This document shows positions 58,682 to 63,532 of a DNA stretch of 64,000 bases, piece after piece; within the stretch, counting starts at the first letter, position 1; the number at the start of each line of letters is the position of its first letter. Source of the DNA: Halobacteriovoraceae bacterium (GTDB lineage Bacteria; Bdellovibrionota; Bacteriovoracia; Bacteriovoracales; Bacteriovoracaceae); NCBI GenBank assembly GCA_963719505.1, contig CAVRCF010000005.1, positions 160,001 to 224,000 of the forward strand. The letters are read 5' to 3'. Under the pieces are notes generated by a model. That model made no database searches. It had not been told where the DNA came from and saw only the letters and a program-made list of their open reading frames with translations. The translations under genes and the position numbers were made by a program.

Positions 58682-59596
58682 TTAATTTCCTTTGTTTAAA
58701 AATTGTTTAAAGTTTTCTTTAAGTGTTGGACAGTTAAAAATATTTTTATGATTGATACGGACAAAAGGAATATGTTCTTCTTTTGAGATACAATTGACTG
58801 AAAGATTAAGGTTGATGTCTGCTGAGGGAATTGAATTTCCTCTCACTTTTGCAACGCCTAGACTTCCGTCATCACTTTTTTGATAGTGATTAATAAAAAG
58901 CTCAGTGTTTTGAAGTTTCTTATAAAACCTAGAGTTAGACATCGTCAAAATATTTCGAAGAGCACCAAAGGCGAGAAACCCTTTTCTTACGGGATCAAAA
59001 AAGATAACAGCTTTTATAGGCTCATTTCTAGCATTGAGAGATCTTATAAATCTATGTGCGCCATTAGATCCCCAGCTTGTTGCGATAACTTTTATGTTTT
59101 TACCAATGAGGTCTTTATGACATTGAAGTGCAGCTTTTAAGTCAGAATTTGAAAAGTAAAAATATTCTCGATCTTTATCAAAAGCTTTCTGCTCTCGCAA
59201 AAAACGAAGGGTAGAGGAGTTGGATTTTTTTAGCTCAAATAGGGATAGGGCATAGGAATCAAAAAACCTTTTAAAGCTTTCATCAGGATATATCACTTTG
59301 TCTTCGCGGCTAACAATATTGAAAAATCTTGGAGAGTAGACTCCGCCGCCTTCAAAAACAAAAATAACATCTTTTGTTTGAGGGGAAACTTTATTTGAAC
59401 AATTTAGTTGGGTTGTCTCATAGGATAGTTTCTCAAGCATTGAGCTAAAATCGCACAATTTTTTGGATTCCTCTGATAGAGAATCGCAGTTCGCATGTGC
59501 GCCTAATGCGAATAAAAAGATAAAGAAGTAGATTTTCATTGTGTGGATATAGCTTATGGAGAGGCATAAACCTAGTATAGTGTTGATTTTATACAC
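58682..59596 (-). CDS. Secreted alpha/beta-hydrolase-like protein
   Basis: ATSWGS nucleophile elbow, FFDPV and late His; likely start MKIYFF. Confidence 0.5.
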   Translation of the reverse strand: MYKINTILGLCLSISYIHTMKIYFFIFLFALGAHANCDSLSEESKKLCDFSSMLEKLSYETTQLNCSNKVSPQTKDVIFVFEGGGVYSPRFFNIVSREDKVIYPDESFKRFFDSYALSLFELKKSNSSTLRFLREQKAFDKDREYFYFSNSDLKAALQCHKDLIGKNIKVIATSWGSNGAHRFIRSLNARNEPIKAVIFFDPVRKGFLAFGALRNILTMSNSRFYKKLQNTELFINHYQKSDDGSLGVAKVRGNSIPSADINLNLSVNCISKEEHIPFVRINHKNIFNCPTLKENFKQFLNKGN

Positions 59597-59695: not shown

Positions 59696-59968
59696 TTAGT
59701 GGCGAGTTTCTTCTCGGACAGCGTCTATGAGTTCATCCTTATTCATATAACTTCGCCCTTCTATTTCAAGTTCTCGGGCCATATTATACATCTGTTCTTT
59801 TGTTCTATATTCATAATGACTATGAGGCACACCAGTGTCTAAATCGGGCTCTTGTTGTAAAGGCTCAAGACTTTCACTTTCTTCATGAGAAACTAGCGGA
59901 TGCCCAATAATTTGTGCATAAACTTCTTTAAATTTCTTAGCGTTAGCATTTGTCATTCCAGTAATCAT
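59696..59968 (-). CDS. Rho N-terminal-like domain protein
   Basis: TKEQMYNMARELEIEGRSYMNKDELIDA. Confidence 0.75.
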   Translation of the reverse strand: MITGMTNANAKKFKEVYAQIIGHPLVSHEESESLEPLQQEPDLDTGVPHSHYEYRTKEQMYNMARELEIEGRSYMNKDELIDAVREETRH

Positions 59969-60075
59969 AATAGCTCCTTGTTGCTTTATTCTTGTTAAAA
60001 TCTTATTTCTTTGGACGGTAATATAATTCCTGTGTTTAACTAAATATTATGTAGATTTCTTTACTTGATTTGAAC

Positions 60076-61402
60076 TGTATAGAAACTAGACGATTATGTC
60101 CTATCCTTATTTCTCAGCGATTATGTCCTATTCAATAATATTTATGTACCCTGATTCCAATCAGTTATCAGGGGAATTGAATGGGAAAAGTCACTATGTC
60201 ACAAAAAGAATTGAAGCAGTATCGCCTGGCCATGGATGTTATTGAAGGTAAGTTAACTATAATTTCCTTCTCTGAACAGATTGGAAAATCGTATCGACAA
60301 TCTCAGAGAATTATCAATAAAGTTAAGGCCAAGGGTTCGATTGGTGTCTTACATGGAAACATTAATCGAACTCCTCACAATAAAACTCCATTCGAAGTTG
60401 AAGAAAAAATAGTCTCTCTTCTAAAAAATCAATATCGAAACTTTAATCTAACTCATTTTCGAGAAAAGATAGAAGAGTATGAGGAAATTAAAATCAAAAA
60501 AGATGCACTTCACTCAATTGCTAGGAAACATTGCCTTGTAAAACATCCTAAACGAAGAGGAAGACGGTGCCATAAACCAAGAGCAAGACTTCCAAAAGAA
60601 GGGATGATGATTCAGTTTGATGGAAGTGATCATACTTGGTTCGGTGATGAAAGAACTGATTTGATTGGAGGAATTGATGATGCTACCGGGATTGTTGTTG
60701 GTGCTGAATTTTTCTATGGAGAGACGTCAAATAACTCTCTGAAGGTGATTAGGGAGATCGTTGATAACTATGGATTGCCAGAAAGTTTCTATATGGACCA
60801 AGCAGGTATTTATGGTAAGAAAGAGCGCGAGTGGGAATCACAAATTTCGAGAGCATTTGATCAAACAGGAATTCAATTAATCTTAGCAGGTTCTTCTCAA
60901 GCAAAGGGAAGAATAGAGAGACTCTGGAGAACATTCCAAGACAGACTGGTAGCGGAGTTAGAATTTAATCACATAACAAATATTGAAGAAGCCAATTATT
61001 ACTTAAAAGAGATTTTTATTCCTGCATACAATTTTCAATTCTCAGTCAAAGCCGAAGAAGAAGAAGAAAAAGCCTGGAGAAAAAATGTTTTTGGAGACCT
61101 AGATATTATATTTTGTAAAAAGATTAGGCGAAAAATTATGGTTGGAAATGTATTTAGTTGGGAGAATGTGACTTGGGTGTTGGATGAAAAAAGGTGTTTC
61201 TATGGACGAGAAATCAATATAAATATTCACCTTGATGGAAGCTACAGCTTCGATGTGATGGGCAGAAAAGTTCAATGTAAAGTTAGTAATAGGAAAAGAT
61301 TAAGTGACTATGGTGATAAGTCGAAACACAGAAAAAGCGCTTAAAGTCTGATAGGACATAATCGCTCAGAAATTAACCGGACATAATTGCCCAGAAACAA
61401 CA
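60076..61402 (+). mobile_element. IS1202/ISNCY-like element with long direct repeat
   Basis: Repeated ATTATGTCC motifs inverted at both ends; 21-bp DR TACTTGATTTGAACTGTATAG at 60062-82 and 61403-23; left terminus ambiguous. Confidence 0.85.
60181..61344 (+). CDS. IS1202/ISNCY-family transposase
   Basis: QFDGSDHTW, IDDATG and SQAKGRIERLWRTFQDRL. Confidence 0.92.
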   Translation: MGKVTMSQKELKQYRLAMDVIEGKLTIISFSEQIGKSYRQSQRIINKVKAKGSIGVLHGNINRTPHNKTPFEVEEKIVSLLKNQYRNFNLTHFREKIEEYEEIKIKKDALHSIARKHCLVKHPKRRGRRCHKPRARLPKEGMMIQFDGSDHTWFGDERTDLIGGIDDATGIVVGAEFFYGETSNNSLKVIREIVDNYGLPESFYMDQAGIYGKKEREWESQISRAFDQTGIQLILAGSSQAKGRIERLWRTFQDRLVAELEFNHITNIEEANYYLKEIFIPAYNFQFSVKAEEEEEKAWRKNVFGDLDIIFCKKIRRKIMVGNVFSWENVTWVLDEKRCFYGREININIHLDGSYSFDVMGRKVQCKVSNRKRLSDYGDKSKHRKSA

Positions 61403-61511: not shown

Positions 61512-62516
61512 ATGAAGTTAATTGTTACTCTTTTTATTCTCTCTTTTTATAGTTATGGTGAAAGTACCTGTATTGTGACAAGGGCCGGTATTGATATCGG
61601 TAGTGGCACAACCAAATTAAAAGTGGCAAAAGTTGATTTTTGTACGCAAAATATAGTCTCTATTATTCATCAATCCAATATTGCTGTCGGTTATAAAGAG
61701 GATCTAAAGTCTTCTTCGACAAATGAGCTCAGTCTTAATATTTTCAACCAAGGTCTTAGTGCTTTAAACGAGCTCAAGTCAAAGGCGATAAGTTTTGGAG
61801 CTGACTCGGTTAATGCGGTTGCGACATCGGCTTTTAGAACAGCAAAAAATGGTCATCAGTGGGCGAAAAGACTCGAGTTAAAATCGGGTGTGAAGATTAA
61901 GATTATCACTCAAAAAGAAGAAGCTATCATTGGATTCACTGGAGCTATCTCAAAGTCAGACAGCTCAGGAGATACAAGCGTTGTTTGGGATATTGGCGGT
62001 GGATCCATGCAGCTGACGGGTTTTACAACTCATAATGACTTTGAAATCTATGAAGGAAAACTAGCGGCTGTCTCTTTTAAAAATCATATCCTCAGTGAAA
62101 TTAAAATGAATTCAAGTTTGTCTTCACCTAATCCTATGACTAATGATCAAAGGGAGATTGCTTTAAGAGATGCCAAAATAATAGCTAAAATTACCGTCAG
62201 TGATAAGATGAAAGAGAAAATAAAATCTTCAAGCATTATTGGTATTGGGGGAGTTCACTTTAATAGTCTGTTAAAAAATATTACCGATAAAAACTTCTAC
62301 ACCATTGAAAATATTGATAAAAGACTGGAGGAGACAAAGGAGCTTTCAGATCACCAAATTGGTAGTCCTTATGCAAGTACTGATATTTCTAATTTAATAT
62401 TGGTCAAAGGTTTTATGCAGGCTCTAGGTATAAAAAAAGTTATGGCCATTGAAGTTAATTTGGTAGAAGGCATATTAGTTAATCCTGCTCTTGTCACTAA
62501 TGCCAACTCGTTATAA
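61512..62516 (+). CDS. Ppx/GppA-family phosphatase with signal peptide
   Basis: IDIGSGT, ATSAFR, QKEEA and DIGGGS. Confidence 0.85.
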   Translation: MKLIVTLFILSFYSYGESTCIVTRAGIDIGSGTTKLKVAKVDFCTQNIVSIIHQSNIAVGYKEDLKSSSTNELSLNIFNQGLSALNELKSKAISFGADSVNAVATSAFRTAKNGHQWAKRLELKSGVKIKIITQKEEAIIGFTGAISKSDSSGDTSVVWDIGGGSMQLTGFTTHNDFEIYEGKLAAVSFKNHILSEIKMNSSLSSPNPMTNDQREIALRDAKIIAKITVSDKMKEKIKSSSIIGIGGVHFNSLLKNITDKNFYTIENIDKRLEETKELSDHQIGSPYASTDISNLILVKGFMQALGIKKVMAIEVNLVEGILVNPALVTNANSL

Positions 62517-62775
62517 AGCCAAACATATTCTACTAGAGGATATGGACGATGCCATGGAGATTCGTGAGCAAATTCTTCTAGGAGAGTCTTTCGAAAAACT
62601 TGCCAAGGACTTTTCCGAATGCGATTCCAGTGAAAAAGGGGGAATGCTCGGTTGGTTCTCCAGTGGCGCGATGGATGCCGAGTTTGAAAAAGCTCTTTTT
62701 CATCTCAAGAAGGATGAAATATCAAAACCGGTTAAAACAAAATACGGCTATCATCTTATTGTTAGATTAGAATAA
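62500..62775 (+). CDS. ppiC: Parvulin peptidyl-prolyl isomerase
   Basis: AKHIL, FEKLAKDFS, GGMLGWF and KTKYGYHLI. Confidence 0.9.
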   Translation: MPTRYKAKHILLEDMDDAMEIREQILLGESFEKLAKDFSECDSSEKGGMLGWFSSGAMDAEFEKALFHLKKDEISKPVKTKYGYHLIVRLE

Positions 62776-62818
62776 AAAAGTTTGGAGAAAAGAGTGGGAG
62801 GACATCCTTTCTCCAAAA
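62775..62818. terminator. Hairpin with T-run on the minus strand, between ppiC and the riboswitch
   Basis: TTTGGAGAAA...TTTCTCCAAA with A6 adjacent on the + strand. Confidence 0.7.
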
Positions 62819-62866
62819 CTAATTAAAACTTAAAAAGCGAGAAAGAAAATCGAAATTAATTGATTT

Positions 62867-63027
62867 ACTATAAAGCACTCCATCACATTGATGACAGTAA
62901 GTAGGATTCAACCCAATCTTCCCAAGAAGTAGTTACCAGTTACTTCTTTCGGCTCATTATCCCTGGGAAGGTTTCGCGGGCATTTGGTTGCCTCCACCTT
63001 CTTACTTATAAGAGCACCTCTTTAAGT
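62867..63027 (-). ncRNA. Lysine riboswitch aptamer (L-box)
   Basis: AGAGGUGC..AAGUA..GCCGAA..UUGGG..GUUGAAU..ACUGUCA..GGAGUGCU in order; P1-P5 helices and ACCA/UGGU kissing loops can form. Confidence 0.85.
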
Positions 63028-63034
63028 TATTAAT

Positions 63035-63062
63035 ATGATACGTAGATTTTTGAAAAATGCAA
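63035..63062 (-). promoter_or_regulatory. Sigma70-like promoter for the riboswitch RNA
   Basis: TTGCAT-16-TATCAT just 5' of the aptamer. Confidence 0.55.
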
Positions 63063-63070
63063 TAAAGGAA

Positions 63071-63532
63071 ATGATGAAAAATTTTAAAGTTTGGATAGAT
63101 GCTGATGCCTGCCCCAAGATGGTCAAAGAAGTTGTCTTTAAAGCATGCAATAAACAACAAATTAACCTTATTTTGGTCGCCAACTCTTATATGCAAATAC
63201 CCCAGTCCCCTTATATAAGGCTGATTCAAGTTGAAAAAGGGGATGATGTCGCCGATCAGTACATCGTCGATAATCTAGACCCAAATGATCTGGTTATAAC
63301 CGCTGACATTCCCCTGGCCGCTTTCGTGGTTGAAAAAAAAGCCACGGCCATTAATCCTAGAGGAGAGCTCTACACTGAGGAAAATATAAGAGAGAGGCTC
63401 TCTGTGAGAGACTTTATGGCTGATCTTCGAGATTCTGGGGTAGACACTGGTGGTCCAAGTGCCTTTGATCTCAAGGATAAGGAGCGCTTTGCAAATTCTT
63501 TCAATCGAATGGTTACAAAGCTTCTGAAGTAA
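63071..63532 (+). CDS. yaiI: YaiI/YqxD family protein
   Basis: WIDADACP, DVADQYI, VITADIPLA and NPRGELYT. Confidence 0.92.
   Translation: MMKNFKVWIDADACPKMVKEVVFKACNKQQINLILVANSYMQIPQSPYIRLIQVEKGDDVADQYIVDNLDPNDLVITADIPLAAFVVEKKATAINPRGELYTEENIRERLSVRDFMADLRDSGVDTGGPSAFDLKDKERFANSFNRMVTKLLK

Follow-up and report, generated by a model that had tools for sequence, protein, structure and literature searches.

The window, the whole 64,000-nt stretch of Halobacteriovoraceae DNA analysed here, carries towards its right-hand end a lysine riboswitch aptamer on the minus strand, placed between two plus-strand genes: a yaiI/DUF188 gene, divergent from it, and ppiC, encoding a parvulin-type peptidyl-prolyl isomerase, towards which it is directed (Table 1). 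The aptamer is preceded by a putative sigma-70-like promoter and followed, after a linker of ~48 nt, by a hairpin and a U tract that ends on the ppiC stop codon. No ORF is kept on the aptamer strand, where the next gene met is the convergent ppiC, and the element is not the leader of a gene for lysine synthesis, transport or catabolism. An initial annotation, made from the letters of this DNA, had described an L-box-like aptamer with a minus-strand promoter and a U-tailed hairpin, running head-on into ppiC without a regulated gene, and this overall anatomy proved correct in each of these parts.

Table 1 Features of the gene-less lysine riboswitch and its surroundings (window coordinates).
Feature	Position	Strand	Remarks
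yaiI/DUF188 gene	63035..63532	+	divergent; Pfam DUF188 3.4e-49
-35-like hexamer TTGCAT	63057..63062	-	read from sequence; 3/6 consensus match
-10 hexamer TATCAT	63035..63040	-	16-nt spacer after -35
lysine riboswitch aptamer, full length	62865..63030	-	RF00168 covariance model
P1 5' strand AACUUAAAGA	63019..63028	-	pairs with P1 3' strand (62866-62876) or with element B
element A, pyrimidine tract UUUCUUUCUCG	62838..62848	-	pairs with C; predicted antiterminator 5' strand
element B, anti-P1 GCUUUUUAAGUUUUAAUU	62821..62838	-	complementary to 5' leader, P1 5' strand and AGAGG core
element C, SD-like purine arm UUUUGGAGAAAGGAU	62804..62818	-	terminator 5' arm; alternative partner of A
hairpin stem, 13 bp	62817-62805 with 62793-62781	-
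hairpin loop, 11 nt	62794..62804	-
loop motif UCCUCCC	62796..62802	-	within terminator loop; invariant in three lineages
element D, terminator 3' arm CUCUUUUCUCCAAAC	62780..62794	-	pairs with C, 13 bp
U6 tract after hairpin	62774..62779	-	overlaps ppiC stop codon
12-codon ORF MSSHSFLQTFLF	62767..62805	-	start codon in G000 only; probably not a gene
ppiC, parvulin-type peptidyl-prolyl isomerase	62491..62775	+	convergent; Pfam Rotamase 8.9e-25
ppiC stop codon, TAA	62773..62775	+	overlapped by the U tract of the riboswitch strand
homologue of the L082 Rho_N-domain gene	59696..59968	-
homologue of the L082 291-aa gene	58682..59596	-

Scored directly with the Rfam covariance model of the lysine family (RF00168), the aptamer gives 67.0 bits (E 2.4e-17), far above the gathering threshold of 30, and covers the model completely (positions 1-182 of 182), which bears out the L-box-like assignment by the very model proposed for checking it. 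It is the sole RF00168 match in the genome that contains the window (G000; 3.69 Mb in five contigs, 83.5% complete) in a whole-genome search in which 117 of 117 candidates were scored, and a strict aptamer-core regular expression run over the same genome found the same single locus. The core motifs AGAGGNGC, GCCGAA, UGG, ACUGUC and GGAGNGCU are invariant or nearly so in 16 family aptamers including that of G000, and the five-helix junction of the lysine class is present, its helices backed by covariation with the aptamer of G002, a genome of the same genus. Judged from these sequence features, the element genuinely belongs to the lysine aptamer family and is predicted to bind lysine. The fold stability of the region as a whole is unremarkable (z -1.42).

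Routine searches handled this aptamer poorly. An Rfam scan of the whole window at gathering thresholds returned no match, because the filters lost the aptamer and not because it is absent, given the score obtained with the model directly; a gathering scan of 15 loci matched 14 relatives and missed the window's own (L001). An RF00168 search of the family missed G000 under strict filters and missed G002 even with all candidates scored, and the family census below used in its place a motif pattern, with no reversed-control matches, together with a regular expression that recovered 16 of 16 known aptamers. Default Rfam/Infernal filters overlooked this aptamer in four separate searches, and such orphans are probably under-counted.

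The promoter hexamers are kept in three lineages: the TTG of the -35 is common to G000, G002 and the metagenome contig L082, and the -10, in the same alignment columns, reads TATCAT in L082 and TATAAT in G002. A consensus promoter scan listed nothing at the element because the -35 agrees at only three of six positions, and a terminator scan with a stated loop limit of 8 returned no site there, which is attributed to the 11-nt loop exceeding that limit. The U tract has a counterpart in G002 (UUUUUUCUUUU) and a weaker one, UUCUUUC, in L082. The GGAGAAAGG-ATG with its 12-codon ORF (MSSHSFLQTFLF), pointed out in the initial annotation, is indeed present in G000, but G002 and L082 have neither the ATG nor a conserved frame, which rules it out as a gene; an antisense ORF inside ppiC was rejected likewise, no start or frame being kept across the three lineages. 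The true start of yaiI is probably at 63071 or 63074, the homologues in L082 and G002 beginning at the MKNFKVW / MKVW position. This gene adjoins the element in G000 and L082 and sits on a different contig in G002, which rules it out as the regulated gene.

Relatives were found to keep the aptamer without a downstream gene. The G002 aptamer scores 72.9 bits and is followed by an alignable linker and a hairpin overlapping the last ppiC codons, and the near-identical metagenome contigs L082 and L083 (70.1 bits for the L082 aptamer, the one scored) both show the yaiI-aptamer-ppiC layout of the window. The tail-to-tail arrangement with ppiC is common to all three lineages (G000, G002 and L082/L083). 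On the promoter side, G002 has an Ig/fn3-domain gene instead of yaiI, and its far-downstream genes differ too; ppx, which lies near ppiC in the window, is absent beside ppiC in G002 and L082 and was ruled out as part of the conserved unit. With neither yaiI nor ppx a constant neighbour, ppiC is the only one that the three lineages share. Among the best 30 ppiC loci of 121 family genomes an aptamer is present in G000 and G002 only; in two further members of the genus, G001 (87% complete) and G003 (82% complete), no aptamer was seen, and the ppiC homologues found there have different neighbours. The adjacency to ppiC could reflect inherited synteny rather than function.

At the level of the RNA, the aptamer of L082 is 90% and that of G002 68% identical to that of G000, lysC-linked aptamers of other genera reaching up to 71%. 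The consensus fold of G000 and G002 comprises 38 aptamer pairs, of which 12 changed on both sides, five on one side and none is broken; the covariation statistics are thin, no more than three lineages being available and two of these being close to each other (aptamers 90% identical). Retention of the unit with compensatory changes in three lineages makes a fresh deletion scar unlikely. Purifying selection on a working RNA leaves such a pattern, which is hard to square with an inert scar.

Elsewhere in the family the lysine aptamer almost always stands before a gene of the pathway. The aptamer-core motif pattern matched in 103 of 237 same-family genomes, with no match to the reversed control pattern; of the 106 rows returned, three (L161, L162 and L163) had no 3' motif half and were set aside as presumed chance matches, leaving a census of 103 aptamers in 102 genomes. 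Ninety-seven lie directly before lysC, asd-lysC, asd or a dapA-like gene (lysC being identified by a KFGG[ST]S motif close to the N-terminus, not by profile), one precedes a Na:alanine-family symporter gene (G005), one a 349-aa lipoprotein-like gene of unassigned family (G125, first of two copies), and one stands at a contig end where its context is not assessable (L065). The other three (G000, G002 and G095) have no same-strand gene and face a convergent gene. This layout is rare (3/103) and therefore not an annotation artefact. G095, of genus g89, represents a second case of a gene-less lysine aptamer, outside G000/G002. Among ten pattern matches in public collections, five were chance matches without an aptamer (L079, from Paenibacillus, and L084, L086, L087 and L088).

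The lysine pathway genes of G000 and G002 are themselves without the aptamer. In G000, lysC (contig C4, 233961-235280, minus strand) has a divergent asd just 86 nt away, and a leader of 86 nt leaves no room for a lysine aptamer; the gap before lysC in G002 is 131 nt, and the aptamer is lost there too. The aptamer has thus gone from the pathway genes of this small clade, one copy standing elsewhere.

Between the aptamer and the ppiC stop lie four elements (A to D; Table 1), the order and pairing potential of which are conserved in G000, G002 and L082. In these three lineages, in that order, the P1 duplex is worth -4.3, -6.5 and -4.7 kcal/mol, and the anti-P1 helix formed by the 5' end with B -11.8 (16 bp), -8.5 (14 bp) and -12.5 kcal/mol (18 bp); the anti-P1 energies exceed those of P1, so that B outcompetes the P1 3' strand in every lineage, and in G000 and G002 alike the anti-P1 helix is part of the minimum-energy fold. 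Pairing of A with C gives -11.4 (9 bp), -14.9 (10 bp) and -10.3 kcal/mol (12 bp), and the C:D terminator -17.4, -17.6 and -20.6 kcal/mol; in G002 element C has an A-to-C change and element A the compensating U-to-G change. With a closed aptamer and no D, the energies of A:C in the three lineages are -13.8, -16.0 and -15.0 kcal/mol.

Folding of the growing transcript passed through the same states in all three lineages: at the end of B, P1 is replaced by anti-P1; with C out, P1 together with A:C is lowest in energy; with D out, anti-P1 together with the terminator is. If P1 is forced at full length, the minimum-energy structure keeps the terminator and not A:C, so that a prediction of lysine-ON switching rests on co-transcriptional kinetics. 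Since B is spaced from A and from C by only 2-4 nt, and the A:C and 5':B helices cross, we reason that these two helices cannot coexist at full length. In L066 and L081, the lysC-linked relatives whose aptamers are most similar, a UUUUUCCUC(CC) tract directly follows P1 and, once the aptamer is closed, base-pairs with GAGGAAAGAC-AUG, the ribosome site of lysC; this is the usual translational OFF design. That the tract:SD helix of these relatives forms with a closed aptamer supports A:C as the lysine-bound structure.

The predominance of lysine-pathway genes behind family aptamers (97/103) is what would be expected if a rearrangement had split the G000 aptamer from lysC and left an inert remnant, decaying or surviving by chance, with a hairpin that is merely the 3' end of ppiC. 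Element C with its ATG resembles a fossil SD and start codon, an active IS occurs eight times in G000, once at 1.4 kb from the element, and two genus members (G001 and G003) show no aptamer, all in keeping with such a history. However, the aptamers of three lineages score 67-73 bits, with 12 compensatory pairs and none broken; promoter, anti-P1, A:C and terminator are all retained with compensatory change; and the U tract belongs to the riboswitch strand, not to that of ppiC. An inert remnant is on this evidence improbable, and the element is probably functional rather than a relic. The initial annotation had counted the relic of a deleted gene among its readings, to be preferred as a simple deletion scar if relatives had a lysine gene here and the RNA was not expressed. 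Outside the small clade lysC does follow the aptamer, but the conservation of the gene-less form is judged to outweigh this, and the scar, disfavoured as a description of the present element, stands only as to its origin.

For that origin, elements A and C offer a clue. They resemble the tract and SD pair of the lysC-linked relatives, C recalling their GAGGAAAGAC-AUG SD region, and in G000 alone C is followed by an ATG, so that purine arm and ATG look like fossils of the ribosome site and start codon in a leader of lysC type. On the evidence of resemblance, not of an alignment, such a leader would first have lost its gene; a copy of the pyrimidine tract with a U tract (D) would then have arisen 3' of the old ribosome site, and the old SD-masking helix, A:C, would have been co-opted as an antiterminator.

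As a working RNA, the element may be a lysine-ON attenuator whose output is the length of a non-coding transcript. The promoter (63035-63062) would drive a minus-strand RNA starting a few bases before P1, which would fold into a canonical lysine aptamer and then into the four-part platform ending in the hairpin and U tract on the ppiC stop. In the absence of lysine, B would displace the weak P1 and form a 14-18-bp anti-P1 helix with the 5' end; this would exclude A:C topologically, leaving C to pair with D, and transcription would stop at an RNA of ~255 nt. With lysine present, P1 would be locked and B single-stranded, A would capture C as C emerges, and the terminator would be delayed, allowing the polymerase to continue antisense into ppiC. 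Modelled in this way, ON logic is somewhat more probable than OFF or constitutive behaviour; for the wider proposition, that the element is a functional lysine-responsive non-coding transcription unit under selection, we put the chances at about even.

The most likely target in cis would be ppiC, acted on by antisense pairing or by transcription interference. Three points favour this output: no neighbour but ppiC is constant, the conservation of an antiterminator implies a role for read-through, and the end of the terminator coincides exactly with the ppiC stop. The layout of a gated antisense RNA, in which an aptamer under a promoter of its own faces a convergent gene across a terminator, is the same in all three lineages. 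The target of such an RNA is expected to be linked to the ligand, and we know of no link between lysine and ppiC. Antisense control of ppiC is accordingly proposed as the main output only tentatively, at rather less than an even chance. Lysine-dependent antisense control of ppx-ppiC had been among the suggestions of the initial annotation: its ppiC half remains, as a prediction, among the leading explanations, and its ppx half falls, ppx not being a conserved neighbour. A stand-alone lysine-sensing RNA, also suggested there, stays among the leading explanations as a prediction, the unit being kept in three lineages.

Read-through might also serve as a long leader, crossing ppiC and driving distal genes on the same strand, the candidates being a Rho_N-domain gene with a 291-304-aa secreted-protein gene (G000 and L082) and a ceramidase-like gene (G002). 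In L082 the Rho_N-domain gene lies 104 nt past ppiC on the riboswitch strand and is followed by the 291-aa gene, homologues of both lie on that strand in the window (Table 1), and a 251-aa ceramidase-like gene occupies the distal position in G002. Yet the distal genes of G002 differ from those of the other two lineages, those of G000 are 3 kb off, behind ppiC, ppx and an active IS, and none is lysine-related by Pfam, all of which makes control of this kind improbable.

A further possibility lies in the terminator loop. The UCCUCCC of the ~255-nt RNA, or of a read-through RNA with its pyrimidine-rich arm exposed, could pair in trans with ribosome sites, for which asd is the best candidate; a small RNA of this sort would make up for the cis control that the aspartate/lysine pathway has lost, and would be compatible with the antisense model. 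The loop heptamer is invariant in three lineages, the flanking loop bases being variable, and the SD of G000 asd, GGGAGGA, is its exact complement, 5 nt before the ATG. This site occurs in one of 33 distinct asd leaders of the family, that of G000, and just 17 G000 ORFs carry such a site; asd, moreover, lies beside lysC, and the cis aptamer is lost from both genes in G000 and from lysC in G002. Against this, the match is of 7 nt only and is a generic anti-SD sequence, the complementarity to asd is read in G000 alone (the contigs of G002 and G003 end inside asd), a constitutively terminated small RNA would not need the conserved A:C antiterminator, and the loop could be kept for a predicted pairing with the GAGG of the aptamer. 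Terminated riboswitch transcripts are known to act on other RNAs or proteins, as do SreA and SreB of Listeria and EutX/Rli55; in comparison with these, the G000 element has only its 7-nt complementarity to one ribosome site. Action in trans is, on balance, unlikely. The three outputs (ppiC antisense, trans RNA and distal genes) are compatible with one another, and a combined scheme, in which the detached riboswitch has become a domesticated ON sensor and high lysine silences asd in trans through the anti-SD arm and ppiC in cis through read-through, appears quite improbable as a whole.

Set against known systems, the element combines a familiar aptamer with an unfamiliar setting. In Bacteriovorax marinus a lysC-dapB-dapA-dapD-lysA operon is listed behind a lysine riboswitch (PMC5584792). 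The G000 aptamer is the same as that of such lysC-leader L-boxes (full model, five helices, core motifs), and family relatives carry it before lysC; the G000 element differs in having no downstream gene and a terminator placed on a convergent gene, and the G000 lysC has no aptamer. The lysine riboswitches tested so far, among them those of Bacillus subtilis and Escherichia coli, switch OFF and precede genes for synthesis or transport (PMC11477304), whereas ON behaviour is predicted for the G000 element. A lysine riboswitch of Listeria doubles as the terminator of an upstream gene (PMC5449094).

Closer in layout is the SAM-I (S-box) riboswitch of Clostridium acetobutylicum, which is convergent on a methionine-to-cysteine salvage operon and has an antisense RNA as output (PMC2258182). 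Like the G000 element, it has its own promoter, lies downstream of and opposite to a gene and uses a terminator/antiterminator platform; unlike it, it binds SAM, is an OFF switch and has a target operon metabolically tied to its ligand. That paper found no further antisense case at the time, and describes a few aptamers away from cognate genes as maybe trans-acting or 'recently orphaned' (PMC2258182). In Listeria monocytogenes, AspocR is a B12 riboswitch-controlled antisense RNA convergent on pocR (PMC5449094); there, as predicted in G000, a riboswitch convergent with a gene sets the length of an antisense RNA, but the class is cobalamin, the case is experimentally proven and pocR encodes a regulator of a B12-dependent pathway. 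The merRNA of Bdellovibrio bacteriovorus, a massively expressed stand-alone c-di-GMP riboswitch RNA (PMC3627812), resembles the G000 element in being a riboswitch non-coding RNA with no conserved ORF behind it and in coming from a predator of the same broad bacterial group, and differs in the ligand-sponge role proposed for it from its extreme abundance. Sponging of lysine by the G000 RNA seems unlikely, lysine being so abundant.

In its layout, the G000 element matches non-coding or antisense RNAs that are gated by a riboswitch. The literature searched, supplements aside, yielded no gene-less or antisense lysine riboswitch, an absence that is not proof; riboswitch-controlled non-coding or antisense RNAs are already known for SAM, B12 and c-di-GMP, and the lysine class would be new among them. 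What appears new is the ligand class, together with the retention of the unit in three lineages and a predicted ON platform made from an old SD-masking helix. The combined scheme, if borne out, would provide the first lysine riboswitch to act in trans or as antisense, and the first natural transcriptional switch of the lysine-ON kind to use an anti-P1 three-way platform; a single aptamer would then control the aspartate-family pathway from a distance. The locus is also a compact system for studying the re-use of an orphaned riboswitch, and invites the question whether lysine serves marine predatory-type bacteria as a nutritional signal.

Sequencing runs covered only small shares of the stretch. 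A marine RNA library contained one contig of 208 nt, 100% identical to the window, which spans 62698-62905 and so bridges the terminator and reaches into ppiC; with a depth of 2.7, it may stem from either strand, and as it may be DNA or the 3' UTR of ppiC it counts only as a weak hint. The other run contigs are confined to a conserved DEAD-box motif of other organisms, and a run of DNA type covered 62962-63042.

The ribosome site of asd in the genome that contains the window (G000) is the unusual GGGAGGA, an exact complement of the invariant terminator loop of the riboswitch RNA (UCCUCCC), and is absent from all of the remaining 32 distinct asd leaders of the family. The lysC-dapB-dapA operon, present in the genus member G003 (L091) and in relatives, is split up in G000 (L090), where an unrelated 183-aa gene follows lysC, and in G002 (L089), which carries the same gene-less unit beside ppiC and has a dapD-like gene after lysC. 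A search for lysC in a further genus member, G001 (87% complete), did not find the gene.

Features located in the window and in related genomes
Feature	Location	Detail
Insertion sequence, ~1.33 kb	window, about 60075-61402	387-aa transposase-like ORF
asd ribosome site GGGAGGA	G000, contig C4:235340-235369 (L090)	
Lysine aptamer, gene-less	G095:C1, about 2024397-2024552 (L164)	minus strand
Two lysine aptamers	G125:C83, 3124-3279 and 4639-4792 (L166)	

A second gene-less lysine aptamer, apparently independent of that in the window, is present in another genus of the family, g89. A strong GC-rich terminator comes after the aptamer in G095, and beyond this lies a convergent 373-aa lipoprotein-like gene. 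The orthologous copy in G125 has a 349-aa gene (no Pfam match) 261 nt further on, and the second G125 aptamer lies 1.5 kb further along, ahead of an asd-type gene. The sole lysine aptamer detected in G005, also of this family (L003/L054), precedes not lysC but a Na:alanine-symporter-family gene (Pfam, 8.6e-70), which may encode a lysine transporter.

Default Infernal/Rfam speed filters, as well as the first-pass genome search, lost the aptamers at window 62865-63030 and at 1838-2011 of locus L016, which nonetheless score 67 and 73 bits, respectively. Their loss may be due to short P2 and P5 elements, and riboswitch variants of this kind may be under-counted in genome-wide censuses.

The transposase-like ORF of the insertion sequence has no Pfam match; eight copies of the element (99.6–100% identity) are present on four G000 contigs. 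The window copy lies between ppx and a Rho_N-domain gene, which directly adjoins ppiC in metagenome contig L082. At window 63035-63076, the yaiI ORF as listed starts at 63035, within the riboswitch promoter; because its homologues begin at the MKNFKVW position, translation probably starts at 63071 or 63074 instead.
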